Made by a program: the position numbers and the translations under genes. Below are positions 6,694-57,830 of a stretch of 64,000 nt of DNA, in pieces. Origin of the DNA: a virus; the IMG/VR virus record IMGVR_UViG_3300021371_000013, positions 6,712 through 70,711 of that record. One strand, 5' to 3'. The notes beneath the pieces were generated by a model. It was not told where the DNA came from, made no database searches, and saw only the letters and a list, made by a program, of their open reading frames with translations. Positions within the stretch are counted from its first letter, which is position 1. Each line of letters opens with the position of its first letter.

Positions 6694-6714
6694 CATTAAA
6701 CAAATTATTAAACT

Positions 6715-22200: not shown

Positions 22201-23221
22201 TAAGTCCATCTGAATACAAAACCATATCTCCCTCAAAATACCTAGAACCAATAGTGAAGTCAAAAATTCTTGCATTACTTGATCGCTCCAAATAATCTTT
22301 TGAAGCAAGTAAGTCTTTGTTGTCATATATTTGATACTCAGAAGGCACACCCAACAATTTAATATTAACGCCCGAATAATCAGTATCACCCTCTGCCCAA
22401 GAAAATGACATGCTAGAAGAAGATAATGATTCGCTAAAATTAAATATTGTGGGAACATGATTTTTTGCATATATTGTGCCTGTTGAAGTTGCACCAAAAT
22501 AATCAACAGCTATCACATTCAAAGATACATTTCTTGATAAATCTAATGAATCAAACGTATCTTGACTAATATTAAAATTGAATTGCTTATAATTACTCAA
22601 GACATCATCTATATTTCCTGGAGCAGTATTTAGGTCTGACGACAAAGAAGTTGCGGTATCTGATAGTGGGTCCAATTGAGAAAAATCAATCTTTTGATCA
22701 CCATCAAACAACTCAACCCTAAACCCAGAAAACATTGGATCATTTATCAAATCATAATCAACAACTTGCCCCTCCAAAGCATGACCTATTGGAGGATTTA
22801 ATTTCCAGGAAAATTCAATTTCTCTATCTATATATTCAGAATCAACAATCAATTGATTTGAATCCAAAGAAGCAGACTTTTTAACACTAGTACCAATTTT
22901 ACTACCTTCAGGCAAATTGTCAACCCGGATGTTGGCAAAAGAAAATGTTCCACTAAACCTCGGGGGCTTAACATTTATTTTTTGTCTGAGAAATGAAGAC
23001 CTAATCCCAACCAAATTTTCCGCAAACAATTTTACATCAAACTCTCCATAATTTCCCTCTAAAGATATAACCTTACTCGCCACTCCACCCACAAAATCAA
23101 CAAGTGTATCTCCTCTTCCTAAATTATGGTCAAAAGAATAATTTTTAGAAGTGCCGATAATTTGGTATATTGCATCCAAATCGTTGACTATAAATTCTAT
23201 TGATATTGCAGTGGATAACAT
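16253..23221 (-). CDS. large central tail fibre (C-terminal continuation of gpJ)
   Basis: FN3-like domains (YFWVRAVDKAGNKS), many CBM5/12-like repeats, IGTAQISEAAITDAKIKTLTADKITAG helix repeat, C-terminal GG.N beta-roll. Confidence 0.8.
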   Translation of the reverse strand: MLSTAISIEFIVNDLDAIYQIIGTSKNYSFDHNLGRGDTLVDFVGGVASKVISLEGNYGEFDVKLFAENLVGIRSSFLRQKINVKPPRFSGTFSFANIRVDNLPEGSKIGTSVKKSASLDSNQLIVDSEYIDREIEFSWKLNPPIGHALEGQVVDYDLINDPMFSGFRVELFDGDQKIDFSQLDPLSDTATSLSSDLNTAPGNIDDVLSNYKQFNFNISQDTFDSLDLSRNVSLNVIAVDYFGATSTGTIYAKNHVPTIFNFSESLSSSSMSFSWAEGDTDYSGVNIKLLGVPSEYQIYDNKDLLASKDYLERSSNARIFDFTIGSRYFEGDMVLYSDGLIYECINSHTRQSSSADPGNTANWLLVGDQVDYIYESFDLNSFTFNFDQDWQYSYYYQLQGFDNYGGGPVFNLTENLLVEKGVDGSELKGFFSELKLSQIEFREQEDDFLFNWDVLDQDNNSVDIDKYRFPLSSTDVPVILGISGSLFNVDTNTFLTGLTEGFNSRSLIEDQDGNTTISASLPNTKNFSSFLYTRDLNNQIYKDGGYISNYQDYDPDNSYVVGDIVLAKNNLLYESLIDTNSIQPIYDEWSRINDYVVSDKITYQNNVLNCIQEFGPSSFALYNENDNYTIGNIVVSPNINIQIFDQNKSYDLREKVLFEGSIYSAVVDINSSEMTIPGVDLNKWRVLSAFNDVSCDYYQLIGTSNVGAPNQDKVNWKKVSPLILAQAQEFFEIIVPAYEFNVSNWSTEKRYNKGDFVVYQNDVWSGVSSTIGEIPSDSSQFWANTSDGQNIGEFSSYLNRSYESGDFVYNNNSVYECISDNPVGGPIEAYTNSSLLINSSYESSQWKPVWENNTNYDNFVFKHVGIPESGKRSVGIEIGIIDINGNVLDKKRRTAINYAPAITDDGFNKQIITPVDSLSEATKVKFRYNYTDEGIREKTTRVNLYRSNVADFTILNDQGLPFMSEDEVGSTLVKTVLGAADAVLGVNINEIIDNPPVNTVNGVEERAGYFYKILPFDDFGSGYLYEIEDKIQVIPSNYSNRSENGVPGPVISLTEDDIPGPVLNFNGSTAFTTYFLNWSMPGSQISDNGIIDIPPNDLSHYEVWLGNEKILQDNNQNWAVDDNSGYRRFVGDIKSTIGASENIPPDAIDPGKSITNATSIFNVSANSPSIETSYIGDQGDVGYFWVRAVDKAGNKSKFIGSSDPDADYVEGLELILGGVQTTDVVDFQKNITTEFKNTIALDPPDPFNYNYNKGILSWAQHDVWLNGEKYDISAGTLGYEKSGYVWWDYDSSQYSGSNTHPAGSDGFDKLEQFNDGDFIVAKNSSAGYTLSYHAFANALIGTAQISEAAITDAKIKTLTADKITAGQIKGHRIEIFHSGDNQSSNYGSIASVGFSGLQFSESEQGVLDQSVNGFVLSGDGSFAFQQGRGGLSFEEDELTIRGRLRQKNNKDYDFVDIDLSSSVIGYIETEDGFELDQTQADVSIDLTFRNSSVTSASHILIKIKDENNVSIKPVGQTVDAVNYLGDDWYRLDDLDQDGFEWNQVLNDSNGLKSSSISMSAAKFNEYINANNNGSEFITIYVSSVHSDLQKKASITRLVDGKAAESIRLSASSQIFKVNKYGSTIGDNEIIITADVQNTSKGIQWVSDVDDIKIYDVNDNEIPKTISGNINYVQNKIVKIKFNDFPEGQLTVKIGAATEAGTVSPSVSDEMTFIVVEDGSNEVSVVLSNENHTLSQISINNSLQLDPTDSGTDIEVFDGAQILKPYPESDYNDLTNKKGAYYVTNESTIGITEDPSPEEDLVNNKIIYEDIAIDDHAIKSASITFTIQGTKLNGEVFGSISKKQTFSVAQIGEDGKTAVTVELSSTHYAIRYSVDPVNENNLIADPANFTLTATPRNLEGATHTYAWKKDGSVISNQSQYQLTQNSSSATNGVVPAPMTYSVEISVDDDVVASDSITIIALKDGNIGRNGRTPTYRGNWTSLLEELDVGGVIKFEQTDTRGDIVEFDTGGGDNYWICTTPHWVKKVSSTKYSFSNDNSTFGTAYILTNAYWIADSDYWDQNWTNFGTELDNVATDILLTKEAYITNKLNIGGPKAGAIKSNGFIGGLIDTSNEDPGKWDAPPTSENYNPAGFVLAYDNTYDNTSAYFDVGGRVQSNGADISLPGGGFVKSYIRFNSSSGKLEIRGASVNNTSEEQIAVQLSVDQSSIDYGSPEDTLATFVGGGYANAISDPNNANSYQSLASSIIGGGSNSIEGRFSMIGNGYSNDCKDNFSAIVAGYNNRMTKGGEDNQGSNFIGAGQSNVINGGTNQAILAGQNNQIIYTL

Positions 23222-23224
23222 TTT

Positions 23225-26200
23225 TTATAAAGTTAAATCGGTAATAATTAAATCTTCTGGACTTTCAGGAGCATCCATATCTGCTTGCGGAGGAATTGGA
23301 GACCTAGGTTTTCTAGATACACCTTTTTTATCTATGAAATCAAACTTTGAGGAGTTGTACTCAAGACCAGTAACCTCGAATTGATTTTCAGCTATCTCTT
23401 TTACATTAAGGACTCTAAACAGTTGACCTTCTAAGTTTCTTTGTATTCTTGAATCCGGGCCAATAATATAATAAACACTGCCAATACTTTCTTGCCCTTC
23501 AATTTTCTGAAAATCTGAATATTGAATTGAGTCCAATATTGTTTTCTGGGCTGAAGAGTTTACAAGTTCAACAGCATTTTCATTCACATATACAACAGAC
23601 CATCTACTATTTATAGAAGAGTCAAAAGAAGAATTAGAAGAGTTTACATTTTCTATATACAGAGTATTGTTTCCTTCTATATCTAAACCATGTCCGTCAA
23701 AAAACTCAATCAAAACAGAATCTTCTCCTTGAATAGAATCATTTGAGGAAACAGAATGAAACTCCTTAATTCCAGAAGCGTGATAGCCAGGATTTTCATT
23801 GAAATCTATTTCTACATCAACAACTTCCTCTTGATTAAAATCTTCAGTAATTACATCTTCAACTTCAATTGAATCAACAAGAGACAAATAGTAACCATAT
23901 TGATTTATTCGAACAACTGGCAATAATTTTGAGTCTCCAAGTTGGTACATATCTCCAATTAAAAGCTGTTGTTCTTGTGGGTTTTCGTATACAAAAAGAC
24001 TCTCAATAACCTCTTTTGAACTCGAGGCGTATTGTACAGCAATCCACCTATTTATACTTAAAACATACCAATAACTATCTTTTATAATATTGTTTGTCCA
24101 AAACCATCCAATATCTTTTTCAAAAAGCCACATTTGATCAAGATTAGAAACTTTCGTTCTTAACTGCTCGATATATACCCACTCCAATGTTGGACTAAAA
24201 ATCCATTCATTATCTGCAGAAACGAATCCTAAAAAATCTGATTGAAGAAATTCTTGATTTTGCTGTTCCTGGGCACCCACAATCTCAAACTGCTCCTGAG
24301 TCCAGTCAACAGAATCTCTTGTTCCAATCAGTCCTTTAATTGAATATGGAGCTCCTATATGTATTTGATTTAATGCGTCTTGCAGTTTATCATTATTCTT
24401 ATACATAAAATAGTGGTCGCCACCTTTATTTAAAAATCTATCTTTACCAATATCAAAAATATTAACAGTATCCTCTGAGTTGAATTTGTATATTTTAAAA
24501 GTATGCTTGGTTAGATCGGTAACTTTATATATAAAACCTTCTTCAATTCCTCCAGGCAAAATACCCTCCGAAATAAATGCTATTTCTTCTGCTTCATCAA
24601 GACCATGATTAAAACACTTTATTATATTTGTGTTAGTATCAACAGTAAAGTCTTTTTTGTAGTTTATATTAGTTATGATTGTTTTTGATTGTTCTATATT
24701 TTGTGCACTTACGGTTTTAATTGAACTTATTGATCCATTAAATCTTAATATTTGAGGTGTATTTACAGATTCAATTTCAATATCTTGATCCTCTTCACTA
24801 TTATAAACATTATAGGAATTGGAGGTTATAGAAGATTTCCCTTCCATAGACTTTATGCTTTCATTACTCAATCCACAGGAAACAGAAAATTCTATATTCG
24901 ATACGCTCGGACAATCTTTTATAGATTTATCTATTACTACATATGGAGAAGCTGACTGAATCATCTGTCCGTTAATATTATAGTTTCTACCTTCGTATAC
25001 CCCCAATACTCTACCACTTTTATCTTTACCAGCCCTATATTCATCAGAAACCTCAAACACCGACCCTGGTATTAAATAACTCGCTTCTTGACCCGCTGTA
25101 AACTTAATTGTTTCAGTTTCTAGTTGAGATGTAAACAAAACCCATTTCGCCAACCTTCTGGCTTGAGACTCGGAAGTTATACCAAACCCAAGAGTTTCAT
25201 TTTCTATATATCCAAGCTTTCTCATACCCTCAGGGTCTTCTTCGTAAACCAAATCTGGTTTAAAATTTTTATATTTATTATTAAACCTAACCATCGAAGC
25301 AGTAATTCTTTTGTTTTTATTCATTCCAGAATAAGCAAAACCAGTTTTTGATACATTAGAATTATTAAACATCATGATTGTTTTTTTGTAGGCGTCTTGA
25401 GTTGTAAATATTTTCCCACCAGAATATGTGGCCATTCCTCTAAAAATAGCAGTCATAGAGTTTATCATATCTAAGGCTTTTGATCTATCAGTTAAATATA
25501 TGTTTGTAGAAAACCTTGTCTCCAAAACTGGGTGATTTACCTGAACGGCACAAGCGCCAACAATCATTCTTGCTCCAGAATCCTCACCAATAAAAGATAC
25601 TCCTGTTTCATCTAAAACTGGGCCCCTGACTAAAATTTTTTTCGTTAAAGGGTTGGCAGATAAAACAGTTCTCTCCTCCACGACGTACTCTTTTTGCCGC
25701 TTCGCAGATCTATTTTTAATAATGTCAATCTGGCCATTATTTAATCTTTCATTATTAAATGAATGCTGATACATAAAAAACGCAATCTTTTTTCCTTTGT
25801 ATGACCCACCATCCCCAAACTCAGACTTAAATATATCAGAAGAACTTTTATTGCTAATTCCAGCATCTATATGATTAGTGAAAGCATACTCTCCAGACTC
25901 AAGAACCTTAAAAAACCCAGAATCTACTGTGATCTCGAAAGCTCCTGAAGACCCTTGATTACTTAATTTATTAAATGTCTCAAAAGGTTTTGGTATAGAA
26001 TTTTCTGTATCAAAGGGGTAATCAGTTTGAACAAGCTCATCACAATACTTTGCCACTTTATACAATTGCCATTTATCGATATTTTCTTCTTCCAGTCCAT
26101 ATTTACCAAGTCCATATCTAAAATTATTTAGCAAATCAAAAAAAATCCAAGCCGGATTATCAGTCCAGTATTTATGCTGGTCAGATATTGTATGAATAGA

Positions 26201-27823
26201 CTGATCACTAGATTCTTGACCTCTAAATAATCCATTCCAAGGACCAACATATTTTCTTGACAGAGGATCATAATTACTAGGCACTAAAACTTTTTTAAGC
26301 TTTAAATGATAAGACCGACTAGGAACATTTGAAAAATTTTTACTATCAAAAGTTATCCTAGTAGCAGCAGTATGAGGATATAGCATTTTACTTTCTACAA
26401 TCTCCTCAACATGAGCAAGCTGCAAATTCCTAACGTTTTCTAGCCCCCCTACGTCGTCATCTTTAACCGAAGGATCGTATTCGGCGCTTAGTTTCACAAT
26501 TTTAAAAATAATCCCCCCAACTTTTTCGCTAGTAGTATTTAGTCTATTAAAATTAACATCTATGTCAAATTGATAAGGAGATGTTGCTATCCCTGTCAAA
26601 GAAAAACCTGAGCCAGCTCCTTTTTTAACAACTCCAGATGCTTGACGAAATGTAGAACTACACCCAGAACGAGAAGCTAGTATATTTACAAAACTGTTAT
26701 CTCTGTATATATAGATTCCAAAGTAAACTGAATTCTCAATCCGAATAGCCTCTCTATCTTTTTTGCCTCCAACAATAACTGTCTTAGATAACTCAGCCTT
26801 AAAAGAAAAGGTTACTTTTGAAACGTTTTCGTTTAAAACTACATGGCTAATTGCCCTGCCCCCCGAATTTTCTACGTCACCCAAAGAAGTGTATCTGGTT
26901 TTATTGTATGGAGATGCGCCATAAAGCATTTGGTCATAATCAATTATACTTGAAATAGAATTGGAGAGTATTTTGCTATCCATCTGACCTCCAAGCTTTA
27001 TATCGGGCGGAAGTTCATCTTCTTTTTCACTTAGAATATAATTAAATGTTCCATTTCCATCTATAGACGTATTTTTGATTTGAACGTCATTCAAAAATAT
27101 ACCTTCTCGCATATCTCCGCCAGATATCGGGCCTCCATATTTACCAACAAAACCTTCTATGGGACCTTCAGACAGTAAATCAACATATGTTATTTCAGTG
27201 TAAGACTCTAAAGCTGTCGAAGAAACACCTTTTCTTGTAACTTTTTTAGGAGAAGAATAAAGAGGCATACTTCTTTTTGTTGCAGAAACATTCGTAGATC
27301 CTATTTTTACCCTACCATAGCCAACAGGCACAGGAATTCCTTGAGCGGTTCTATTGGTAGCTCCTTGAAGTAAAAAAGATTTGGTTGAAACTGGTGCACT
27401 GGGAGTTGGAGATTTTGGAGGTTTAAAAAGCGCGTTCATTGCAACCTGAGTAACCGCCCCCCAAACCATAGAAGTAGCAATAGAAGCTACTAAGCCTTTA
27501 CCAAATATTCCTATCATAACTGTACTAACAAAACCTCCGTAAGTTTTTGGCACAAGATGGATCTCAGATTGCTTTAATTGAACATTATGAAAATCTGTGG
27601 TTAAAACATTTTCTTTTAGATCTTCTTTTGATTTAATTTTGTCGGGCGATTTTTTAAGAAAATAATAATCATCTCCCCTCAGGGAGTGAGTCAATATATA
27701 ATCAATAAAACCTTCTTGATTCGCATCTATAGCACTAACAGCTTCTTGAGCAGAAGACACATCCAATCTCCACTTTTTACCAAAGCGCTTACCTAGCTTT
27801 CCGTGAAGATATACCGTTCTCAT
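23225..27823 (-). CDS. tail tip protein, gpI-gpJ (TipJ) fusion
   Basis: N-terminal gpI-like (VYLHGKLGKRFG, QGIPVPVGYG); gpJ motifs LSEGPIEG, WTDNPAWIFFD, IDKWQLYKVAKYCDE, QARRLAKW. Confidence 0.9.
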   Translation of the reverse strand: MRTVYLHGKLGKRFGKKWRLDVSSAQEAVSAIDANQEGFIDYILTHSLRGDDYYFLKKSPDKIKSKEDLKENVLTTDFHNVQLKQSEIHLVPKTYGGFVSTVMIGIFGKGLVASIATSMVWGAVTQVAMNALFKPPKSPTPSAPVSTKSFLLQGATNRTAQGIPVPVGYGRVKIGSTNVSATKRSMPLYSSPKKVTRKGVSSTALESYTEITYVDLLSEGPIEGFVGKYGGPISGGDMREGIFLNDVQIKNTSIDGNGTFNYILSEKEDELPPDIKLGGQMDSKILSNSISSIIDYDQMLYGASPYNKTRYTSLGDVENSGGRAISHVVLNENVSKVTFSFKAELSKTVIVGGKKDREAIRIENSVYFGIYIYRDNSFVNILASRSGCSSTFRQASGVVKKGAGSGFSLTGIATSPYQFDIDVNFNRLNTTSEKVGGIIFKIVKLSAEYDPSVKDDDVGGLENVRNLQLAHVEEIVESKMLYPHTAATRITFDSKNFSNVPSRSYHLKLKKVLVPSNYDPLSRKYVGPWNGLFRGQESSDQSIHTISDQHKYWTDNPAWIFFDLLNNFRYGLGKYGLEEENIDKWQLYKVAKYCDELVQTDYPFDTENSIPKPFETFNKLSNQGSSGAFEITVDSGFFKVLESGEYAFTNHIDAGISNKSSSDIFKSEFGDGGSYKGKKIAFFMYQHSFNNERLNNGQIDIIKNRSAKRQKEYVVEERTVLSANPLTKKILVRGPVLDETGVSFIGEDSGARMIVGACAVQVNHPVLETRFSTNIYLTDRSKALDMINSMTAIFRGMATYSGGKIFTTQDAYKKTIMMFNNSNVSKTGFAYSGMNKNKRITASMVRFNNKYKNFKPDLVYEEDPEGMRKLGYIENETLGFGITSESQARRLAKWVLFTSQLETETIKFTAGQEASYLIPGSVFEVSDEYRAGKDKSGRVLGVYEGRNYNINGQMIQSASPYVVIDKSIKDCPSVSNIEFSVSCGLSNESIKSMEGKSSITSNSYNVYNSEEDQDIEIESVNTPQILRFNGSISSIKTVSAQNIEQSKTIITNINYKKDFTVDTNTNIIKCFNHGLDEAEEIAFISEGILPGGIEEGFIYKVTDLTKHTFKIYKFNSEDTVNIFDIGKDRFLNKGGDHYFMYKNNDKLQDALNQIHIGAPYSIKGLIGTRDSVDWTQEQFEIVGAQEQQNQEFLQSDFLGFVSADNEWIFSPTLEWVYIEQLRTKVSNLDQMWLFEKDIGWFWTNNIIKDSYWYVLSINRWIAVQYASSSKEVIESLFVYENPQEQQLLIGDMYQLGDSKLLPVVRINQYGYYLSLVDSIEVEDVITEDFNQEEVVDVEIDFNENPGYHASGIKEFHSVSSNDSIQGEDSVLIEFFDGHGLDIEGNNTLYIENVNSSNSSFDSSINSRWSVVYVNENAVELVNSSAQKTILDSIQYSDFQKIEGQESIGSVYYIIGPDSRIQRNLEGQLFRVLNVKEIAENQFEVTGLEYNSSKFDFIDKKGVSRKPRSPIPPQADMDAPESPEDLIITDLTL

Positions 27824-29209: not shown

Positions 29210-31522
29210 TTAAGAACTTATATATATATTAACCAAAGACTCAACAATTTTATATACAGAAGAATTAGAAATCGCAAGAAGCGACCCATATCCCTGGTCA
29301 TACGGTATAGAAGATGCATAAAATTCCGCATCAATTTCGTCCACAAAAACTATATCATCCAAAGATCCCGATTCTTGATTCACAGAGCTTACCCCGACAA
29401 AACGATCTGTATTTTCTCCCTCAAATACAACACACCAATATGCAGTTTTTCCTGCTGGAATTTTATTTGTTTTATTATTTTCAATAAATTGCTCAACCAA
29501 AAACCTTGGATGATACGCAAAATAATCAGGCATACCTAACTGAGATCTTGCCATTGAAGTTATAACACCTCTATTGTTTTGAAAAAATTTATTTGCCACA
29601 CCGTTATATGTATCTGTCAAATATCGATCTCCATCTGGTCTTACAACGGTAAATATTTCTCCTCCGGCCAGTCCTTCTGTATAAGACTTCGACATCCTCA
29701 CGGTTTTATTTGCCAAGTCAAACGGCAAAGACGTGTCAGACGGCAAGGTGAAAATAAAATCATCAGCAATCAAATCGTCTTGTATGATCATTGATATATC
29801 AGCATTGCCATTTTGAGTTAATATCGAAAACTCAACATTATCATTATAAAAAACCATTGCGTCGACATCAATAGTTTCATCTCCACCATTTTTTGCATAC
29901 ATTCTTTTCTTAACGCGGTCATCAATTTTTATTTCTTCCCCAACCCCCTGGATTGAAAACTGAACAGGGGACTCGCAAAGTAATTCTCCAGCGATTGGCA
30001 TAATGGGAGTAATTATATTATCCACTTGACTTGCGGACATCTCAATTGGATATTGCTCGAATTTTGCGCTTATACTATGATTGTTTTTATAGTTGTAAGT
30101 GTGTGTCCATTCTTGGCATACGAAATTTTTCAATCGTTCGTACGGAGCAGGTGGATTAAATTGAAAAGGAATTGCGCCGTAATGTTGTTCAAGAAAATGA
30201 AGTATTGCGCGAGCTTCTGCATCATCACGGTTGTTAAAATTCAGTTCCAAAGTCAACAAGCTTTCATTTATTCCATCTCGATATATTTGACTATACCCGG
30301 CCCCCATTCCAATTTCATTTAATCGAGGCTTTTGAGAAACACTTAAAGTTAAAGACGGCTTCCAGAAAAACTTCCTAGACCAACAATCAGTATTTACATC
30401 AAGATGATATCCATAATTCCTATTCCATTCTACTTGCGTTGCGGTTGGATTTTTTCCTGCATACGATTGATCGCCATACCAATAATAAAACTTCTTATTT
30501 TCTACATTATAAACAATATCATTTTTTTCGTAATATTCGCTATCAGAATATTCATCTATATCAGCAACAAAAAGACCATCTAATTTTTTGAGTATTGAAG
30601 TATCTAAATTTCTAAGTTTTACAGATATATCATTATCATTTTCAAAGTTTAAATTGTGAGTCCAATCACTACAATAAAATGTTTTGCTTTGAACTTCTGT
30701 ATTGTCGTATGGATGAAATGTTGAATCGCCATCCCACTGAAACCCTGAAATTCCCTGGCTGTATTTTAAATTAGGAGAAGGAGTATCTTGCTCATGTTGA
30801 CCTTGATGATTTTCAAGAAAATGAACAATTGCATTTGCTTCTCTATTGGTTCGATTTTTGAATTTCAAATCAACCTCTATATTCAAGCTATTGATATTTT
30901 TGGGTTGCAAGATATAGTAACCATTACCATATTCATATTTATAATTGTTTGCGCGAAAATTAACCGTACTACCATAATCAGCATCAAAGAAAAATTCATC
31001 GTGTGTCCATACATTTGTATTATCAGATGGCTCTGCATTAATCGCGGTGATCGTCAATTCACTTGGACCAGCTGGCTCGATATTCTTAAATGATCCTTCG
31101 ACAGGTAAAACATTTATAACCGATCCATTTAAATCAGGATTACCATTCAGTGATGATACGTCACTCTTAACATCAATAACTTTATATATACCGTCGTTAT
31201 TTCCAGTTGATCCATCAATATTCAATAAATGCCCAACCTTTATTTCTGCGCCAGGAGCATCAAGCAAATTAAATGTATCCAAAACGTAATGACTCTGACC
31301 GTCACTAGTCATTGGTCCATCAGGAATCAAAGACAATCGATTATTATCTTGTATAAAAATTCCCGCACCATCAACAGCATCTTGTCTCGCATAATAAAAC
31401 AAACCATCGCCTGTATAATATACAAAATCAAACTTTTTATAATCAACTCCTGTTTGATAATCGCCGGAATAATTTGACACATGCGTCAAATACTCAGACT
31501 TGAACAAATTACCTATAGACAT
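29210..31522 (-). CDS. distal tail protein with tandem gpM-like domains
   Basis: Two copies of G.GY...IN.L..L.F.NR...EA.AI.HFLE.H.G. Confidence 0.8.
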   Translation of the reverse strand: MSIGNLFKSEYLTHVSNYSGDYQTGVDYKKFDFVYYTGDGLFYYARQDAVDGAGIFIQDNNRLSLIPDGPMTSDGQSHYVLDTFNLLDAPGAEIKVGHLLNIDGSTGNNDGIYKVIDVKSDVSSLNGNPDLNGSVINVLPVEGSFKNIEPAGPSELTITAINAEPSDNTNVWTHDEFFFDADYGSTVNFRANNYKYEYGNGYYILQPKNINSLNIEVDLKFKNRTNREANAIVHFLENHQGQHEQDTPSPNLKYSQGISGFQWDGDSTFHPYDNTEVQSKTFYCSDWTHNLNFENDNDISVKLRNLDTSILKKLDGLFVADIDEYSDSEYYEKNDIVYNVENKKFYYWYGDQSYAGKNPTATQVEWNRNYGYHLDVNTDCWSRKFFWKPSLTLSVSQKPRLNEIGMGAGYSQIYRDGINESLLTLELNFNNRDDAEARAILHFLEQHYGAIPFQFNPPAPYERLKNFVCQEWTHTYNYKNNHSISAKFEQYPIEMSASQVDNIITPIMPIAGELLCESPVQFSIQGVGEEIKIDDRVKKRMYAKNGGDETIDVDAMVFYNDNVEFSILTQNGNADISMIIQDDLIADDFIFTLPSDTSLPFDLANKTVRMSKSYTEGLAGGEIFTVVRPDGDRYLTDTYNGVANKFFQNNRGVITSMARSQLGMPDYFAYHPRFLVEQFIENNKTNKIPAGKTAYWCVVFEGENTDRFVGVSSVNQESGSLDDIVFVDEIDAEFYASSIPYDQGYGSLLAISNSSVYKIVESLVNIYISS

Positions 31523-33298: not shown

Positions 33299-36200
33299 TC
33301 AATCACTTAATAATCCTCCTGGACGTTGCTCCTCAACAATCACAGAAACAACTTGCTGCTTTATTCGTTCTGCCAACTGAGCATTGCTTTGCTCATCATT
33401 CGAACGGTCGGCTGGATTTTGACCGCTTGATTCGTTTTCTTTTTGTTGTTTTTGATTGGATGAACCGCGCTCCATGTTTATGGAAATACTAATGTTGTTT
33501 GTGTTTCCGCCAGTTGACCCAGTTTCGCTTGATCCTGCGATTTTACTGACTGCGCCACCATCATAAAATTTTCCTGCGTTTATTTGATCAAGCATTGGCT
33601 TGCCAATTTGACGAGCGCTACTTGCGCGAATAACATACTCTCCCTCACTGAGCATGGCTGGTATTTGGTCGATGCCAGATTTTCCTGCGATGTGACCACC
33701 GCTGGCGTATTTGCGGATTGGGCCGCCATCAAATCTTTTTAAAGTGGTTGTCATACCCTTTGGAGCGGTGATTTTTGGACCAGCTTCTGTCCCAAACAAA
33801 TCCATTTTACCCAATCCATACATCAATCCGATACTTGCAACCATTCCCAGCAACTGCCTGCGTTTTGCTTTTTTGGCTTGTCGCTTTGCTTCAGCTTCTT
33901 GACGAATACGTTCTTCTTCTGAAAGTATTGATTGTATTGCGCTTGTATCTTCCCCCAATCCTACATTTCCAGATTGAGCATAAAAAGCGCCACTCATTGC
34001 TTTTCTTTGATATAATCTACCAGAATCAAATCCTCGCCCTCCTCCAAAATTAGATGCCAGTGCAGAGCCTTGTGCTGCAGGACCTCCTGGCGCGCCTTCT
34101 CTTCTTATTTTTCCTTTTGATAATAAATCATTTTCTACAGCATTAGCCAAGGCGGCTTCCTGTTTAGCTTTTGCTTCAAGACTTTTTGAAATTATTGTGC
34201 CAGCAATTTTTCCTCCAACGGGGATTTTTTGTTTTTGAATTTCTCCGCCATCAGCAAATCCAGGTATGCTTCCACCAGCATTCATTCCGTGCATGAATGA
34301 TCCGCCATATTTATTTACTGCATCGCGACTCATCACATATTCGCCATTGCTTACCATCGCAGGTACTCCACCACCCTTTGAATATTTGCGAACATTTCCA
34401 CCCTTTGAAAATCCCATTGCGCCAACCATTTGGTACGCCATTTTTTGCATCATTGCTTGCTGAATCATTCCGAGAAATCCAACCGCGGCATCCATTAGTC
34501 CTTCTTTTATACTTTTTGTTCCATTGATTGCTTCGGTCATTGCTCCGGCAAGTCCATCGGCGAAAGCGCCAGGAATTTTTTCTCCAAGTTCATAGTCCAT
34601 GTATTGAACTTTCTCGCGGATCGAATCCATTCCTTCTCCAATACCCCTGCTCATTGCAGATCTATCATCTCCAGGCAAAGCTTCGCCGCGTTTGTATTTT
34701 AATATTTTTTCTCTTAATTCTAGTTCTGCGCGACTTGCATCATTGTTTGCTTCTTGTAATTGATTCAGCCTACTTTGTTCGGTTACAGTTGACTTTACTT
34801 TATCTAATATGTCATTCTTCTTACCGTCTATTATATTTTGATATTCTGCAATTTGTCTGTTAATTTCTGCTTGTTCATCTGTACTTGCAGAACCTTTGCC
34901 TTTATTTAATTCATCGATTCTTTCTTGAGCCATTTTTTTGGTTCGGCCAACTATGTTGGCAGAGGTCATATCATTGATACTGAGTCCTGTTGGATCTAAA
35001 TTTAATTCTTTGAATTTGGAAGTAATCGCGCTCCTAGATCCTGCCAACCTAGATTGTTTTTGCAAACCAATTCGTGCCTCCAATTGTGCGCGGTCGAATG
35101 CTATATTTTCATCCTGAGATCTATAAATTCCTCGACCATGTGTTGGCATTTGATATAGTGCTCGACGAATTCTTTCTTGCTGTTGATTTAAATCGATATC
35201 AAATTGAGCTTTATCTTTTAATTTTTCTGCTTCGGCAATTAATACTCTCATTGCGCCAGCTTGTTTGCCCAACTCAACGTTCGTTTGTTTATCTAAATGT
35301 AACTTCTGTTCTTTTAAATCTAATTCGTTACCAGCGAGCTGCAAATTTAATTCTGATTGACTGTATATATTTAGTATCTTGTCGATTTGATCTTCTGTGG
35401 CTCCATTTTGTTTGAGTATTTTTTTCAATCGATCCGCTTCTTTTTTTATCAATTCATCGGTCAACTCCACTTGTTTTGCTGCAGCAGCTTGTTCTTCTGG
35501 AGTTTGCTTTTGAAACTCAGCCTGTTCTTCTGCTTTTAGTTTTTCTTTATATAAACTAATTTTTAATTTTTGTTCAAGATCGGCATCGGTATTTATTAAA
35601 TTTATCAAGCCTTGTTTTTTTGTTGATTCCGCGGAAACTCGAGCAAGATCATATGCCTCCCCAGCTTTATTCAATCCTTGTACGTATTTCATTCTGGCTT
35701 TTTGTTCTTCAGATATAAAGCCGCCCATTAGTTTCAATTCTTGTTCAAGTATATTACCTCTTTCAAGATATCCTTTTTTAATATCAAACTGCGCCTGAGC
35801 TGCCGCTTTTTGAGACTCAATCATTGCTTTTTGGATATTGAGTTGGAGAATTATTGCTTCACTTTGATCGTGCTCTGCAGTGATTTGTTCTTGATAAATT
35901 TTATACAATTGAGACCTTAACGCCTCAATTCTCTTTACATCTTCTGTGTCATCAACTTTAAAAAAATCTATTTTTTCTAAATTTTTTAAAAAATCAGATG
36001 ACTTTTGCAGCTCAGGCTGACCCTGTTGTTGTATCTTGCCTTTTTTATCTCTTGTGTAAGATGGAAATAAAAATTTTTCATCACCCATAGACTCTACAGC
36101 TTTTTTCATAGAGCCGACCTGATATTGTTGCACATTCTGAAATTCATTTTGTTGATCTCCTTGCTCGCGGTATTTCGAGATCTGATCGATTTCTTCCGCT

Positions 36201-39200
36201 GACGGGCCAAAAAAGTCAGAAATTAAAGGTATTTTCATTTTAAATATTGGGTTATTCGGCCCCCTTATAAGAAAATCTTTTTCGTTGATATCGGGAGGCG
36301 TAGTAGCCGTGTACTTTGGGGCAGCCATTTTCATAAGCTGCTTACCCTCTTGACTCATATCATCAAATATGTTTTTAGAAAATGCTTGTATAAACTTTGG
36401 ACTTGTACCCACAAAAGAAGATATAACCCCTTGTTGCCTTTTTAATTCTGCATCTTTTAAAGCTTTTGTATTTTCTTCGGTTGCACTTGCCCAACCCTGA
36501 TACGCTCCAACTGCACCTCCGAGCGCTATTACCAGCGGTGCGCCGGGTCCAAACATTGGTGCGATCATACTTGCCATCATTGCTCCAGAAGCAGCGCCGC
36601 TTAAGGCTCCTCCTGCGGCATACATACTTTGATTACCTCCTTGAGCGCCCATTCCCCCTTGTTGTAAAAAACCCGCAGCCATTGGTGCTCCAATCATCAT
36701 TGCCATGCCAGCGTTTCCTGAAAAAGCTCTCCCAAGGCCAGAAGAAAACCTTCCCATTTTACCTCCGATTCCTGTGGCTGAAGATTTTTCAAGAACACTC
36801 AATTTAGCTCTGGTTTTATCTAGATTACTTGTAGTACTCTTAAGTTTTGATTGTACTGCCCTATACTCGCTAGTACCCTTGGTAAGCGTTGACAGCTCTT
36901 GATTATGTTTTTGTATAGCTTGTTCTCTTTGCTCTATTCTGCGATTTAACTTCTCTATTTTTTTAGTATGTTCTGTAGTAGCTTTTTCCCAGTTTTGTCC
37001 AAATTTTGTGTTCGCTATAGAACTTTTTATACCGTCTAGGGGGTTAAAGTAATTCGGCACAAATCCATTCGCACCAAACACATCACGCAAACCATTTGGC
37101 TCATCATGTGTATTGGTTACGCCGAGGCCGAGGGGGTTTCCCTTGCCCATGAGTGCGCCGTGTGAGCCCACACGAATTTGTGAAACTGGAACACCAGCCG
37201 ATTTTTCTCGGCCTATTGCATCAGATAATGGATCGGCGAAGTTGGGAATGTGGCCGTAGGCTTTACCTTTTTTGGGTAAAGATTTTAAATCAAGTGGGGT
37301 TTTAGTTGTGGGGTCTGAAGAATAAATTTTTCTGGCAAACCCCATTACATTTTTTAAATTTGTATTAATTTTAGCCTCGGCACCTTCACTTCCTTGGTTC
37401 TTACCTACTTCAAAAAGTTCGTATAATTTTTTATTTGGGGGCAAGTCGATAAGTGCATTGTCTGGCCTTTCATCTACTTTCGCACTTTCACCTACAGATC
37501 TCAATACCGACTTGGTGACTGCTTCGAAAATATGACCGGCTACTGTAGCCATTTTGCTTTTTGGTAAATCTTTTTCTATTACAGCAGAATTCATTGAGCC
37601 ATAACCAAAAGTTTTAAGCATGCCGCTTGCAATTATCGCACTTCTTTTCTGCAGCTTCGAATTTATTTCATCATCATATCTTTTAAGACCCCTTCTTTCA
37701 TCTTTTTCATCTAAAGATTTAAATTCAACATCAATTTTTCTTGGCTGAGCTTTTTGCATTGCTGCCTTTTTGTAAAAAGATCTTCCTTTTTTATTGTATA
37801 TGCCACTATCAGTCCCACTTCCGCCAGCTACATAAAATGTTTGTTTGGGTTTATCTGGACCCAAGGAAGCAGAGAGTCCTATATACTCACTTGAACCGGC
37901 ATTTAGATATTTTGTTTTTTTATCAATTTCCTGCATGATTGCGGGATTACTTAAATCTATTCTTGGTTTAGCTCCGACACCCTTGCCACCCCTTGCAAAA
38001 TTCGGAATATATCCCCCTGCAGCATATGGATCGAATCCATGTATACTACCAAATGCTTGTTGATAGTTTTTTCCAGCTTTGCTTGAATGAGGAGGCATGA
38101 TTGCAGGTTGACTCATACCTTTGAAATTCTTGACTTTTTCTGCGCTATTATATATAACTGAACCTTCGCCAGGCATGTTCATGCTTCGAATATTTCCAGC
38201 AGCATATCCACCCTGCGCAGCTTGTGCACGTTCTGGGTTTGCATAATTAGGAATATGCCCACTCGCTTTTTTACCAACAGGTGTTAAATTCGCACCATAA
38301 CCTTTTCGATACAATGTGCCAGCCATGCCAGCAGTCAATTTGTTTAATGAGTTAGCCTCAACAACTTGAGCTTTGAGTAGACCAAGTATAATTTTTTCTT
38401 TTTCGGTGCGGCCAATATCTGTGCGCAACATTTCTTTGTTGAGTGCTGCGTTTTGACCAAACAATGCAACCAAGCTTGTTTGTATGGCTTTTTGTTTTTG
38501 TTTTTCGGTTGTTACGCCGACCAACGAAGTTAAACTTTCTTTTGTAAACTTTAATGCTTGACCAAATAATTTGAAAAATACACCCGCGAGAACCACCAAT
38601 CCTGGCCCAGTAATAACATTACCAATACCTTTAAGAAGGCCAGTAGCAAAACTACTTCCAGTACTCTCTCCATCACCCAATACTCCGCTCAATCCTTCAG
38701 CAAGACTTTTGACAGAGTTGAGAATCTTTTCCATTCCCGGAGCAAGTGCAATTTCTCCAATTTGCGTACTAACTTGTTTGATAGCAAGTCCTGTTTCTGT
38801 GGCAACTGCAGACATTGTTTTGCGCAACTCTTCATTCTTTTGTATAGCTTCATCTGTAGCGCCAGCAGATATTCTGGTAGCTTCAGCCATGATACCATTT
38901 TGCTTCGCGGCATCACTCAAAACAGCTTTCAAAATATTGATATGAAACAGCCCACCCATTGTTTGAGTAATTTGAGCTTTTTGCGCAGCGCTAAGAGTAT
39001 CAAACGTATTGGCGAGATCATTCAGTATACGTTGTGCACCAATTGTATTTCCCTCAAGATCGCGAACTGCGATTCCTAAATTTTCAAGTTGATTGAGCGT
39101 ATCAGTTTTTCCTGTTTTTGTGAAAATTGTTTTCAACGCATTACCAATAACCGCACCACCACGAGCAGTTTTTTGCTGAGCGGCAGTTACAATACCCACA

Positions 39201-39883
39201 AGTTCATCGATACTCACACCAGCACTTTGAGCAGATTGACCAGTACGAGAAATAGCGTCCGCAAAATCTTGCGCACTAACCGCAAACTTAACATCAACCG
39301 CAGCAAACTTACTAACCAATTGCGTAGTATCTTTGATTTGCGTGCCGTATGTGTTCATCGCAGCAGTCAAAGATTTTACCGCTTCGGCAGAATCCATGCC
39401 AGTCAAACGAGTAAGAACCAAAGCATCTCTCGTTCTTTTTAGAGATTCTTCAACACCCAAGCCCTGACGAGCATATTCTGTGGCAGCATCTGCAGCAACT
39501 CTGAATGCCGCACCAGTTTCTTTTGCCACTTTAAAAAGTCCATCACTAAATTTTTCTAAGTTTTGAGCGCTCAAACCCATAACCACATTAACATCAGCCA
39601 TGGCTTTCTCAACCTCAACAAGATTTTTAACCATACCCTTGAATGCATTAGCCACACCATTGATGATTGCCATACTCGCACCGAACGCAAGAATACGAGC
39701 ATTCGCAGCTTCCATTGATTTGGTAAACTCATCGGCACCACGCTTCATGTTACCCAATGGCTGGGTGGCGCCCTTGTCATCAACCGTAATTTTAATTGGT
39801 TGACGACGAATTCTATTTACAGCCGCCTGTACCGCCGCTTCAAGCGGTTTGGTATTACCATGTACATCAAGATCAATAGCCAT
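33299..39883 (-). CDS. tape measure protein
   Basis: 2194 aa; TP901-type TMP core (AATEYARQG, GNALKTIF); coiled coils; C-terminal PAMLSEGEYVI and EQRPGGLL. Confidence 0.95.
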   Translation of the reverse strand: MAIDLDVHGNTKPLEAAVQAAVNRIRRQPIKITVDDKGATQPLGNMKRGADEFTKSMEAANARILAFGASMAIINGVANAFKGMVKNLVEVEKAMADVNVVMGLSAQNLEKFSDGLFKVAKETGAAFRVAADAATEYARQGLGVEESLKRTRDALVLTRLTGMDSAEAVKSLTAAMNTYGTQIKDTTQLVSKFAAVDVKFAVSAQDFADAISRTGQSAQSAGVSIDELVGIVTAAQQKTARGGAVIGNALKTIFTKTGKTDTLNQLENLGIAVRDLEGNTIGAQRILNDLANTFDTLSAAQKAQITQTMGGLFHINILKAVLSDAAKQNGIMAEATRISAGATDEAIQKNEELRKTMSAVATETGLAIKQVSTQIGEIALAPGMEKILNSVKSLAEGLSGVLGDGESTGSSFATGLLKGIGNVITGPGLVVLAGVFFKLFGQALKFTKESLTSLVGVTTEKQKQKAIQTSLVALFGQNAALNKEMLRTDIGRTEKEKIILGLLKAQVVEANSLNKLTAGMAGTLYRKGYGANLTPVGKKASGHIPNYANPERAQAAQGGYAAGNIRSMNMPGEGSVIYNSAEKVKNFKGMSQPAIMPPHSSKAGKNYQQAFGSIHGFDPYAAGGYIPNFARGGKGVGAKPRIDLSNPAIMQEIDKKTKYLNAGSSEYIGLSASLGPDKPKQTFYVAGGSGTDSGIYNKKGRSFYKKAAMQKAQPRKIDVEFKSLDEKDERRGLKRYDDEINSKLQKRSAIIASGMLKTFGYGSMNSAVIEKDLPKSKMATVAGHIFEAVTKSVLRSVGESAKVDERPDNALIDLPPNKKLYELFEVGKNQGSEGAEAKINTNLKNVMGFARKIYSSDPTTKTPLDLKSLPKKGKAYGHIPNFADPLSDAIGREKSAGVPVSQIRVGSHGALMGKGNPLGLGVTNTHDEPNGLRDVFGANGFVPNYFNPLDGIKSSIANTKFGQNWEKATTEHTKKIEKLNRRIEQREQAIQKHNQELSTLTKGTSEYRAVQSKLKSTTSNLDKTRAKLSVLEKSSATGIGGKMGRFSSGLGRAFSGNAGMAMMIGAPMAAGFLQQGGMGAQGGNQSMYAAGGALSGAASGAMMASMIAPMFGPGAPLVIALGGAVGAYQGWASATEENTKALKDAELKRQQGVISSFVGTSPKFIQAFSKNIFDDMSQEGKQLMKMAAPKYTATTPPDINEKDFLIRGPNNPIFKMKIPLISDFFGPSAEEIDQISKYREQGDQQNEFQNVQQYQVGSMKKAVESMGDEKFLFPSYTRDKKGKIQQQGQPELQKSSDFLKNLEKIDFFKVDDTEDVKRIEALRSQLYKIYQEQITAEHDQSEAIILQLNIQKAMIESQKAAAQAQFDIKKGYLERGNILEQELKLMGGFISEEQKARMKYVQGLNKAGEAYDLARVSAESTKKQGLINLINTDADLEQKLKISLYKEKLKAEEQAEFQKQTPEEQAAAAKQVELTDELIKKEADRLKKILKQNGATEDQIDKILNIYSQSELNLQLAGNELDLKEQKLHLDKQTNVELGKQAGAMRVLIAEAEKLKDKAQFDIDLNQQQERIRRALYQMPTHGRGIYRSQDENIAFDRAQLEARIGLQKQSRLAGSRSAITSKFKELNLDPTGLSINDMTSANIVGRTKKMAQERIDELNKGKGSASTDEQAEINRQIAEYQNIIDGKKNDILDKVKSTVTEQSRLNQLQEANNDASRAELELREKILKYKRGEALPGDDRSAMSRGIGEGMDSIREKVQYMDYELGEKIPGAFADGLAGAMTEAINGTKSIKEGLMDAAVGFLGMIQQAMMQKMAYQMVGAMGFSKGGNVRKYSKGGGVPAMVSNGEYVMSRDAVNKYGGSFMHGMNAGGSIPGFADGGEIQKQKIPVGGKIAGTIISKSLEAKAKQEAALANAVENDLLSKGKIRREGAPGGPAAQGSALASNFGGGRGFDSGRLYQRKAMSGAFYAQSGNVGLGEDTSAIQSILSEEERIRQEAEAKRQAKKAKRRQLLGMVASIGLMYGLGKMDLFGTEAGPKITAPKGMTTTLKRFDGGPIRKYASGGHIAGKSGIDQIPAMLSEGEYVIRASSARQIGKPMLDQINAGKFYDGGAVSKIAGSSETGSTGGNTNNISISINMERGSSNQKQQKENESSGQNPADRSNDEQSNAQLAERIKQQVVSVIVEEQRPGGLLSD

Positions 39884-50185: not shown

Positions 50186-50725
50186 ATGAAAAATCTATTG
50201 TACAGAACCAAATGTTATTTGGTAGGCCACATGCAGTATGTGAGCGGTCGTAATTGGAGAGATCATGTAGCAGAAGAGCTTAAACCATTAAGTATTACAT
50301 GTTTTGATCCATACAAGAAACCTTTTATTAAAGATGTAGAAGAGGACGAAGCAAGTCGTCAAGAAATGGAAACTTGGATGAGTACCAAGCAATACGATCG
50401 AGTAACCGAGCGAATGAAAACTGTGCGTGCATACGATTTAAATTTGGTAGATCGTAGTGATTTTATTATTGCGCATCTTGTTCCTGAAGTGGCAAGCTGG
50501 GGAAGCGCCGAAGAAATCGTCACAGCTGTTCGCGAAAAAAAACCTGTATTCGTTAGTATGGAAGGTGGCAAAGCAAAGACTCCGCTATGGATGCTTGGTA
50601 TGTTTCCTCATAAATACATCTATAATAGTGTTGACGAAATCATACAAATGTTGTTCGCCATTGATGATGGAAACAAGCCTATTGATTCTGACCGTTGGCG
50701 TTTGCTAAGAAAAGAATATAGATGA
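50186..50725 (+). CDS. nucleoside 2-deoxyribosyltransferase-like protein
   Basis: YLVGHM, FDP, DLNLVDRSDFIIA, SWGSAEEI. Confidence 0.75.
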   Translation: MKNLLYRTKCYLVGHMQYVSGRNWRDHVAEELKPLSITCFDPYKKPFIKDVEEDEASRQEMETWMSTKQYDRVTERMKTVRAYDLNLVDRSDFIIAHLVPEVASWGSAEEIVTAVREKKPVFVSMEGGKAKTPLWMLGMFPHKYIYNSVDEIIQMLFAIDDGNKPIDSDRWRLLRKEYR

Positions 50726-50884: not shown

Positions 50885-51388
50885 ATGCTCACTCAAAAAA
50901 TAGTAGAATTAAGTTTTGAACATGAGGAGCAGATACTGAATTTGATAAAAGCGTCTATCTTTAATGGAGATGAACTACATATAGGAGATTTACTACCAAC
51001 AGACAGTAATGTGTCTTCGTTTTACAAGTTAGAAATCTTTCCATTATTATTTGAAGATGAGCCGGTGTTTGGATGTTTTGATCACGAAGCATTGATCGGT
51101 ATAAGCTGCTGTTCAACCAAGATAAATGATTTCTACAAACTCAAACAAAAAACCGCGACAGGAGTTATCACGATAGTGCATCCTGATTATCGTCAACAAG
51201 GAGTAGGAACAGAACTTAGGTTATCTATCGGCAAAGAATTGCACAATCGCGGCATACAAAAATTTGTATTTGACATAAAAAACAACAATCAAGCATCACT
51301 AAACAACGCACAAAAAATCGCCGCGCAACTTGACGCAGAAACACAATTGATAGCATTTAAATTCGAGGGCAATACAAATGTTTTTTGA
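50885..51388 (+). CDS. GNAT acetyltransferase
   Basis: VHPDYRQQGVGT motif A and NNQAS. Confidence 0.85.
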   Translation: MLTQKIVELSFEHEEQILNLIKASIFNGDELHIGDLLPTDSNVSSFYKLEIFPLLFEDEPVFGCFDHEALIGISCCSTKINDFYKLKQKTATGVITIVHPDYRQQGVGTELRLSIGKELHNRGIQKFVFDIKNNNQASLNNAQKIAAQLDAETQLIAFKFEGNTNVF

Positions 51389-52019
51389 CCAAGTATTAGA
51401 ATATTTAATCGACAAACAAGCATACACAAAGCAACAGCGCCGATTATTTGATGCACTAGCAAGCGTGTTTGTTGAATTTCCGATTGACAATGAACCTCCA
51501 AGCTCAGCGGTTGTTGCGCTTGCGGCAAATTGTGGCTCCGATTTACCGCATGCGCTTGCTGCAGGACTAAACTGCATAACCGATCAACATCTTCCAATCA
51601 ATCAAATCGCGGAGTTTATATCAAACAATCATCATAAAAATCCTATCGATGTTGTGCGCGAAAATGATGGTCGAAAAATTCCTGGCTTTGGACATCCATC
51701 CATCAAGCAAGAAGATGCAAGAGTAATTTATCTTATAACCAATTTCGCCGACCTAATAGGTAACCACACAAATTTTTGTTTAAGATTACAAGAACACATG
51801 CCTGTTCCAATGAACATTGGATGCGCGATCGCAGCTCTTTCTCTGGACAATGGAATTGACCCAAGTAATTGTTTATTCCTTCCATTGATGGGTAGAATGT
51901 TTGGATGGCTTAAACTTTACAACAAAACTAAAAACAAATTCAATAAAGTAGTTCCTTCTTTTGAGAGTATAAAAAATGAACATTCGTCAATATCTGATTC
52001 ACCGCAAAGGATCAACTGA
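51378..52019 (+). CDS. citrate synthase / citryl-CoA lyase-like protein
   Basis: PSS...ALAAGL...H, IPGFGHP...DAR, PMNIG, GRMFGW. Confidence 0.75.
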   Translation: MFFDQVLEYLIDKQAYTKQQRRLFDALASVFVEFPIDNEPPSSAVVALAANCGSDLPHALAAGLNCITDQHLPINQIAEFISNNHHKNPIDVVRENDGRKIPGFGHPSIKQEDARVIYLITNFADLIGNHTNFCLRLQEHMPVPMNIGCAIAALSLDNGIDPSNCLFLPLMGRMFGWLKLYNKTKNKFNKVVPSFESIKNEHSSISDSPQRIN

Positions 52020-56881: not shown

Positions 56882-57381
56882 TGGAAGATTTACCGAGTCA
56901 AGAACAGAAGATTTCTTTTGAAGATCTTGCCGAATCTCGAGGTTATTCCCCCAAGCGTACTCGCAGGCATGACTTTAACAATGTAACGCATCTGCTTAAA
57001 GCTAAAGGTAAGAATGGAAAACCTCTAGAAATTCGTTTTGATGTTAAGAAAATCAAAAACAAGAAACAAAGCCAAGAATGGTTATGGATTGAGTTTAAAA
57101 ATGCAAAGGGTGAAGACGGATGGATTCATGGTGACGCACATTTTGTAGCTTTTGAAAGAAACTACGACTTTGTTGTTGTGAATCGCAAAGAAATGGTGAA
57201 GATGTTGAACGGCGGAAAGATACGATACGATCTACCATTTGTTGATCTTGCCAAGAAAGCAAAGTATAGAATTTACAAAAGAAGCGGCAAGCCTGAAGAG
57301 ATTACGCAAATCAATGTTAAAGATTTGAAAACTCTTGAGAGTTATCAAGTTTGGAAAAAGCAAGATGCCGCATCAGAATGA
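56881..57381 (+). CDS. PD-(D/E)xK nuclease-like protein
   Basis: FE...FDVK...WIEFKNAKGEDGW. Confidence 0.6.
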   Translation: MEDLPSQEQKISFEDLAESRGYSPKRTRRHDFNNVTHLLKAKGKNGKPLEIRFDVKKIKNKKQSQEWLWIEFKNAKGEDGWIHGDAHFVAFERNYDFVVVNRKEMVKMLNGGKIRYDLPFVDLAKKAKYRIYKRSGKPEEITQINVKDLKTLESYQVWKKQDAASE

Positions 57382-57817
57382 ATTAGATAAAACATACATT
57401 CAAATGGCCACCTCTTGGTCGCGTCTCTCAAAGGCTCGGCGCAAGCAGGTTGGCTGTTTGATTGTTCGTGATGGAACCATCATTAGCGATGGCTACAACG
57501 GCACTCCAAGGGGTTTTAGTAACAATTGTGAGGTAGAAGAGGAAGTACCAAGTATGCTTGCCTCACGGGGCTATATACTAACCACAAAGCCTGAAGTATT
57601 ACATGCTGAAAGCAATGCTATAACAAAACTTGCAAAAAGCACTCAATCAAGCGCGGGAGCAACAATATACACAACTGCATCCCCCTGCCTTGACTGCGCA
57701 AAATTAATTATACAATCTGATATACATCGCCTTGTATACAATGAATTATATAAAGACGAACAGGGTATAAATTTATTAAAAAAAGCTGGAGTAATTGTGG
57801 AACAGTGCGAATTATAA
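57365..57817 (+). CDS. dCMP deaminase
   Basis: VGCLIV, GYNGTP, HAESNAI, PCLDCAK. Confidence 0.92.
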   Translation: MPHQNELDKTYIQMATSWSRLSKARRKQVGCLIVRDGTIISDGYNGTPRGFSNNCEVEEEVPSMLASRGYILTTKPEVLHAESNAITKLAKSTQSSAGATIYTTASPCLDCAKLIIQSDIHRLVYNELYKDEQGINLLKKAGVIVEQCEL

Positions 57818-57830
57818 CTTATAATCATGC

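Follow-up and report, generated by a model that had tools for sequence, protein, structure and literature searches.

The tape measure protein (TMP) gene in a 64,000-nucleotide (nt) stretch of viral DNA (the window; positions 6,712 to 70,711 of the 70,711-nt IMG/VR record IMGVR_UViG_3300021371_000013) belongs to a family in which the TMP of related phages is, with very little doubt, a string of modules fenced by a short peptide motif and exchanged by recombination. A swappable TMP module string with an enzyme-like cargo is held, with slightly better than even confidence, to be the best overall explanation. The gene (33299–39883 on the minus strand, stop codon included) codes for 2194 amino acids (aa), of which aa 120–311 match PF10145 (TP901-type; E 5.9e-27; 95.3 bits vs a curated cut-off of 33.2), the sole Pfam match in the protein; the N-terminal 500 aa give matches to ten PHROG families of tape-measure proteins (best E 3.6e-54). 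An earlier note, made from the letters of this DNA, had described the TMP as a polyprotein with a nuclease-like cassette between repeated IPN(F/Y) motifs. This interpretation was partly supported: the swappable cassette was borne out, and the nuclease and polyprotein readings remain candidates.

Four copies of the motif, following the pattern G-[HYF]-[IV]-P-N-[FY]-[AF], were located by regular-expression scan at exactly the positions that the earlier note had given, all on the minus strand: R1, GHIPNYA (aa 542–548; 38240–38260); R2, GYIPNFA (aa 624–630; 37994–38014), the left fence of the cargo cassette; R3, GHIPNFA (aa 877–883; 37235–37255), its right fence; and R4, GFVPNYF (aa 940–946; 37046–37066), which opens a second variable region. 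The variant R5 (GSIPGFA followed by DGG; aa 1871–1879), seen earlier at about 34260, was found by the same scan at 34253–34273 for GSIPGFA (aa 1871–1877, minus strand) and is kept as G-x-[IL]-P-G-[FY] in most relatives. The TMP contains nine (F/Y)xxGG motifs, and five of these lie beyond aa 1820, matching the several that had been noticed near the C-terminus. The strict motif is absent from the other open frames of at least 80 aa in the window. R1 and R2 enclose D1, a constant 75-aa domain with an alpha-4beta-alpha fold (aa 549–623; 38015–38239, minus strand; predicted local distance difference test (pLDDT) score 74–89), and R3 and R4 enclose D3, a constant 56-aa domain with an alpha-beta-beta-alpha fold (aa 884–939; 37067–37234, minus strand). 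Between R2 and R3 lies the cargo cassette, a hypervariable, basic alpha/beta domain whose fold is without match (aa 631–876; 37256–37993, minus strand). An AlphaFold2 model of aa 530–960 (pLDDT 77.5) displays D1, cargo and D3 as three folded domains, and the four motifs locate in linker segments with pLDDT below 50 (R1 at model residues 1–18).

Relatives were collected by a word-index protein search with aa 530–960 (807 proteins at E ≤ 1e-3, 120 of them listed, nearly all of about 1500–3400 aa) and by an exhaustive HMMER search with aa 542–946 (937 representatives of 50 % identity clusters at E ≤ 1e-3). Motif and module counts rest on 251 retrieved TMP sequences, and BLASTP with single segments was performed on 119 relatives among the matches listed. 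D1 and D3 were recovered from all 119 (66–100 % and 75–100 % identity, respectively), whereas 66 of the 119 yielded no BLASTP match (E ≤ 1e-3) to the query cargo, the identity of which falls to about 20 % among relatives. Per-position identity across 250 relatives amounts to 0.73 at aa 601–630, 0.11–0.22 at aa 631–870 and 0.65–0.71 at aa 871–930, and drops again past R4; the steps at aa 631 and 871 are sharp. One point weighs against reading too much into the constancy of D1 and D3: it is partly given by construction, since relatives were gathered with queries or patterns containing both domains. Neither how sharp the steps are nor what near-identical genomes show when compared depends on such queries.

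The same boundaries appear at the nucleotide level. The closest locus by blastn (L007) matches at 96.3 % identity for 6.3 kb as far as 37997, has no match across the cargo and is 92.7 % identical again from 37251 onwards. In another locus (L050), about 94 % identity on both sides of the gene and in a 201-nt D3 island coincides with an unrelated cargo and an unrelated central ruler part. D3 stands as an island of 88.7–97 % nucleotide identity between two replaced segments (e.g., L050, L032, L025). Among 69 loci, nucleotide matches end at R2 in 60, start at R3 in 48 and end at R4 in 44, and similarity of at least 80 nt inside the cargo was detected in a single locus. Sequence change between close relatives therefore falls exactly at the motifs, although the crossovers themselves probably occur anywhere in the conserved flanks. 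As the homology breaks coincide with the motifs, the motif is the last conserved element ahead of each variable module. Of the proposal that the repeats serve as recombination anchors, the breaks at the motifs were found, and a role as DNA recombination site was ruled out: codon entropy at motif positions (229 distinct instances) is about equal to that of the same codons elsewhere in the genes, so that synonymous sites vary freely and the constraint acts on the peptide. The motif is a protein-level element.

The 251 TMPs were cut at the motif and the pieces clustered, yielding 112 module clusters, the largest of which comprise D3 (196 members), D1 (190) and the cargo type of the query (178). 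D1-cargo-D3 is the commonest architecture, and insertions into it of further modules (about 90, 120 or 240 aa long) are frequent. In giant relatives there are 8–17 modules (e.g., P0144 with 11, P0202, and P0226 with 17), and module order is permuted between two further relatives (P0242 and P0243). Comparison by hhalign of the 21 clusters with at least 3 members revealed them to be mutually unrelated, bar a few mergers due to a missed motif; the best probability of the cargo cluster with any other cluster was 1.3. Homology of D1 and D3 as repeats is likewise unsupported (hhalign probability 0.6). Variation of the segments between motifs among related TMPs, as anticipated in the earlier note, is hence observed both as replacement of the cargo and as the wealth of module clusters, with one qualification: in 178 proteins the cargo slot of the query is occupied by very divergent representatives of a single family rather than by different folds. 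In 13 giant relatives, PF10145 alone exceeded the Pfam cut-off in 12 and one was without any hit; three sub-threshold hits occurred in two of them. The called start of one 1722-aa relative on a 152-kb contig (P0054) lies 6 residues before R1 (MVKKLSGHIPNYAN...), reflecting either a gene split at the module boundary or a gene-calling artefact.

A second exchangeable region of the TMP (33299–37045, minus strand; aa 947 to about 1760) begins directly after R4; within it lie a coiled coil, a hydrophobic stretch rich in Gly/Ala/Met and the long ruler. Its exchange is not tied to that of the cargo: one relative (P0021), for example, keeps aa 947–1060 at 95 % identity next to an unrelated cargo. The Gly/Ala/Met-rich stretch (about aa 1040–1145; 36449–36766, minus strand), delimited on the sequence with hydropathy windows at aa 1093–1128, would be the membrane-inserting part by analogy with T5 pb2 (accessible part of 10.1101/2022.09.20.507954).

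In the 251 TMPs the motif, searched as G.[IVL]PN[FYW], is found at module boundaries in 0–18 copies per protein, with four copies in 129. A logo from 906 distinct instances reads A-x-G-[FYLH]-[IV]-P-N-[FY]-A, in which G, P and N never vary. The motif overlaps (F/Y)-A-x-G-G joints (YIPN-FARGG at R2 and SIPG-FADGG at R5) and may be a more elaborate version of the joint (F/Y)-A-x-G-G seen in lambda gpH and T5 pb2. Separation of the modules by cleavage at the motif is a tentative proposal, for which T5 pb2 provides, by analogy, the one piece of outside evidence: the sole [FYWH][IVL]P of this 1219-aa protein occupies residues 1124–1126, directly before a point 92 residues from the C-terminus (...GNANSFVPR/AEGGMMYPG..., the slash marking the point). 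The cut position was derived from the '92-residue pb2C' in the accessible part of PMC12617516. Several findings weigh against cleavage. The likeness of SFVPR/AEGG to Y-I-P-N-F-A-R-G-G extends over 8–9 residues and includes one indel, the similarity to lambda gpH is weak (E 0.044), and no protease co-occurs with the TMP family, the only one seen in the window being a Peptidase_C1 present in 2 of 20 related records.

This papain-family cysteine peptidase (62156–63091, minus strand; PF00112, E 7e-17; phrog_16701) has close relatives on 24 IMG/VR contigs. It was rejected as a general motif protease: the two records carrying it are set against a total of 20 related ones, mostly fragments, and it is missing from records rated 86 % and 79 % complete.

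With the same reserve as for cleavage, the motif may instead be regarded as a peptide that docks or joins the module string to a repeated partner (the tube lumen, a tail chaperone, the terminator or further TMP chains) or as a flexible hinge, the TMP then staying uncut. A short linear binding motif would fit equally well with an element that sits in disordered linkers, is constrained as protein and scales with module number, and the lack of a co-occurring protease in the 20 related records agrees with it. Against docking stand the presence of the motif at every domain boundary, which is the pattern of polyprotein sites, and its resemblance to the T5 pb2 processing point; a candidate partner was not identified.

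The cargo stretch comprises 246 aa with 14 % Lys, compared to 9 % in the whole TMP, and contains GHIFE (aa 783–787), IDLP (aa 812–815) and EAK (aa 836–838), in accordance with the Lys-rich segment of about 245 aa described earlier between R2 and R3. In an alignment of 178 cargo sequences, the conserved core (aa 776–860; 37304–37558, minus strand) displays G783 (37535–37537) at a frequency of 1.00, F786 at 0.91, E787 (37523–37525) at 1.00, D813 (37445–37447) at 1.00, K838 (37370–37372) at 1.00 and K852 (37328–37330) at 0.99; position 836 (37376–37378) is E in 0.59 and D in 0.41 of the sequences, with nothing else observed. The top residue of the remaining columns is mostly below 0.4, and the core columns are equally invariant in A1 and A3. 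The query cargo has an isoelectric point (pI) of 9.7 and a net charge of +17; the family medians are 9.8 and +16, with 99 % of members above pI 9. The cargo thus forms a single alpha/beta family that is strongly basic and evolves fast; its invariant E / D / (D/E)xK / K constellation is firmly shown to be active-site-like. Modelled alone (pLDDT 80.5; predicted template modelling (TM) score 0.74), the domain has E787 within a long helix and D813 at a beta bridge; E836-x-K838 belongs to a strand, and the helix after it contains K852. The domain apparently constitutes a well-predicted, unclassified fold with a clear candidate active site.

On this basis the cargo is probably an enzyme. Its residue pattern and charge make a nuclease the best single guess, albeit a doubtful one, and most likely a metal-dependent phosphodiesterase acting on nucleic acid. 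The order and rough spacing of the invariant E, D and (D/E)xK resemble those of PD-(D/E)xK nucleases such as T7 endonuclease I (E-D-ExK), as do the placement of (D/E)xK in a beta strand that precedes a helix and the basic nature of the domain. The earlier assignment to PD-(D/E)xK stands as far as the order E...D...(D/E)xK is concerned, invariant in all 178 sequences; it fails to be backed by a match to a restriction-enzyme fold or by a typical order of secondary structure elements.

The evidence opposing a nuclease is structural as well as profile-based. The invariant residues reside in the alpha-beta-alpha-beta-alpha half of the model, whereas its alpha-beta-beta-beta-alpha-beta run, the canonical order in PD-(D/E)xK nucleases, is located in the N-terminal half, where no acidic residue is invariant; moreover, the invariant D follows hydrophobic residues rather than preceding a strand, which is atypical for PD-(D/E)xK. 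Pfam searches with the query cargo and 43 family members returned nothing recurrent, and sequence and profile searches of the PDB with the cargo gave no hit. Alignment by hhalign to UPF0102 (YraN; profile from 30 genomes), the single PD-(D/E)xK family compared, had a probability of 0.04. Among proteins of 128–616 aa, a profile search for stand-alone homologues recovered, within the limits of the word index, only one 252-aa fragment; the domain seems confined to TMPs. The earlier note had recommended HHpred/Foldseek on 37256–37993; fold searches with two confident cargo models (Foldseek against the PDB, VIA-align, and BFVD) produced neither a credible fold match nor a nuclease among their rows, and a search of the ESM Atlas produced nothing useful, its best-scoring entry (0.75) being a viral hypothetical protein. 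Weak, recurrent rows of the ParB/sulfiredoxin fold (E 5–8, TM score below 0.2) were taken as noise. A restriction-enzyme fold is consequently not supported by the models, and the cargo may have either a fold absent from the PDB so far or a strongly altered or permuted PD-(D/E)xK fold.

A non-enzymatic cargo, though unlikely, would be a basic binding or spacer domain, holding for example the leading DNA end or adhering to the acidic lumen of the tail tube. In that case the invariant charges would belong to a network for structure or ligand binding, and the domain would vary because constraint is weak or because it evades host sensors of TMPs. Among the other, unrelated variable module families examined, most are likewise basic throughout nearly all of their members, which suggests selection on charge itself; D3 is neutral. 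Neither a catalytic fold could be assigned nor a stand-alone enzyme homologue be found in the protein profile search (128–616 aa), and a 2026 Nature paper on receptors sensing core phage proteins mentions the TMP. Conservation of three acidic and two lysine positions at 99–100 % in 178 sequences sharing about 20 % pairwise identity is, on the other hand, more typical of an active site. Finally, there is virtually no chance that the repeats are fortuitous or low-complexity matches in a long, compositionally biased protein: the query has four copies of G.[IV]PN[FY], whereas just 0.26 % of 20,000 shuffles of the protein contain at least one, the 251 TMPs have 1061 copies of G.[IVL]PN[FYW] vs a mean of 1.35 (maximum 4) across 20 shuffles, and motif positions are conserved across relatives.

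In the preferred picture of a swappable string with an enzyme-like cargo, D1-cargo-D3 is accommodated between a conserved N-terminal third and the hydrophobic/coiled-coil ruler part of the TMP, the modules being joined by disordered linkers that each bear A-x-G-[FYH]-[IV]-P-N-[FY]-A. TMPs depart from the tail ahead of the DNA, lambda and T5 being examples, and for this reason the N-terminal modules might, by analogy, be delivered into the host. Upon infection the cargo would exit together with the TMP and function in the envelope or the cytoplasm of the host; the turnover of its alleles would mirror an arms race with the host, and the motif would be where proteolysis separates the modules in the manner of pb2C in T5. 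A farther-reaching and rather improbable version views these TMPs as injection polyproteins: within a constant D1...D3 frame, 1 to about 15 mutually unrelated basic effector modules would be freely re-assorted in a string, the activity responsible for cutting T5 pb2 and lambda gpH would sever them at G-phi-[IV]-P-N-phi-A joints, and they would be fired in ahead of the DNA, the commonest module being a nuclease of unseen fold. If true, T4 internal proteins and polymorphic toxin systems would thereby have a tail-borne counterpart.

TMPs with embedded, possibly processed functional domains are a known kind, of which the present TMP is a variant. According to the accessible part of PMC12617516, cleavage is known solely for the T5 and lambda TMPs: T5 pb2C consists of 92 residues, and lambda gpH is cut in its glycine-rich C-terminal region, with site and activity not known, the virion containing six copies of gpH*. 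The accessible part of 10.1101/2022.09.20.507954 places the cut of T5 pb2 during tail assembly between the hydrophobic stretch and the peptidase domain; the freed pb2C stays in the tail and is then expelled into the periplasm. Like T5 pb2, the present TMP bears an enzyme domain, here a candidate one, and SFVPR/AEGG resembles G-[FY]-[IV]-P-N-[FY]-A-(x-G-G), to which short motif sequence homology between the two proteins is limited. Unlike T5, which has one C-terminal peptidoglycan-hydrolase domain at the tail tip, TMPs of the present family harbour 3 to 17 exchangeable modules in the N-terminal half, upstream of the hydrophobic stretch, with a fold without match.

Likeness to lambda gpH is found in the C-terminal region. 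Two units of the form KY(S/A)xGG...PAM(V/L)SxGEYV align with gpH 744–784, namely KYSKGG...VPAMVSNGEYV (aa 1831–1870; 34274–34393, minus strand; BLASTP to gpH 744–784, E 0.044) and KYASGG...IPAMLSEGEYV (aa 2056–2104; 33572–33718, minus strand), a weak gpH match recognised by phrog_13338. This family matches two stretches of the TMP, best at aa 2054–2106. R5 aligns, equally weakly (E 0.044), to MRGYATGG of gpH, and (F/Y)AxGG joints are common to both proteins, as is a lambda-like tail tip encoded after the TMP gene. In contrast, lambda gpH lacks both [FYWH][IVL]P and a module array, and an enzyme activity is not known for it.

The TMPs of mycobacteriophages and lactococcal phages contain embedded peptidoglycan-hydrolase motifs and share with the present one the insertion of small functional domains that vary between related phages. 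Those domains are recognisable cell-wall hydrolases, whereas here such a Pfam match is lacking and each module has a dedicated fence motif. T4 internal proteins are basic, protease-processed, injected and encoded at a hypervariable locus; they resemble the modules, which may likewise be delivered with the DNA, in basicity and fast turnover between related phages, but are products of separate genes packaged in the head, whereas the modules are parts of one tail protein. Searches of the open-access full-text literature brought up no account of the motif, nor of any TMP with a nuclease or with polyprotein character.

TMPs are usually seen as rulers and channel formers. The present family is very large and wholly uncultured (937 clusters at 50 % identity), and its sharp joint peptide, confident module boundaries and natural allele swaps render two open questions experimentally direct: how and where TMPs are cut, and what tails carry into cells besides DNA. 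The way cargo alleles are replaced suggests that this domain is likely to stand at the forefront of the conflict between phages and their hosts among marine Flavobacteriales.

The window derives from an uncultured marine siphophage with a lambda-like tail tip and, probably, an aquatic Flavobacteriales host. Relatives in genome collections amount to 7 loci, mostly in metagenome-assembled genomes of Flavobacteriaceae or Flavobacteriales. TMP aa 530–960 have no match among 50,697 deposited phage records, and the TMP family is therefore known from metagenomes only. Since related records of 50–140 kb are rated 37–86 % complete, the full genome is probably about 140 kb in size. The TMP gene is located just upstream of lambda-like tail-tip genes of the gpM/L/K/I-J kind, which code for gpM-like PF05939/phrog_14, phrog_18, phrog_30 and a fusion of phrog_32 and phrog_31 (gpI-gpJ-like). 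The gpM-like domain (PF05939) is part of a 770-aa protein (29210–31522), and the fusion is a 1532-aa protein (23225–27823, minus strand) uniting a gpI-like N-terminus (phrog_32) and a gpJ-like central tail fibre (phrog_31) in one chain.

Between the gpJ-like gene and a fibre gene lies an open reading frame (ORF) of 2322 aa (16253–23221, minus strand) with weak CBM_5_12 repeats (E 9e-12) and without PHROG match, which may code for a giant fibre or adhesin. The adjacent ORFs 11173–11682 and 11672–14923 (both minus strand) have a C-terminal fibre-tip domain in common (phrog_8215, phrog_5668; E 1e-24 to 1e-33) and look like a duplicated receptor-binding tip. A 213-aa ORF (51378–52019, plus strand) matches the citrate synthase C-terminal domain (PF00285; E 9e-8, above cut-off), which is unusual for a phage. 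Genes of nucleotide metabolism form a cluster (50186–50725, 57335–58828, 988–1536) that encodes a nucleoside 2-deoxyribosyltransferase-like protein, dCMP deaminase, dUTPase and dNMP kinase and may indicate that the DNA bases are altered or modified. Surface- or DNA-modifying functions may be provided by a galactose-3-O-sulfotransferase-like ORF (60123–60749, plus strand; phrog_3347, E 3.6e-19) and a glycosyltransferase-like ORF of 635 aa (7287–9194, plus strand).

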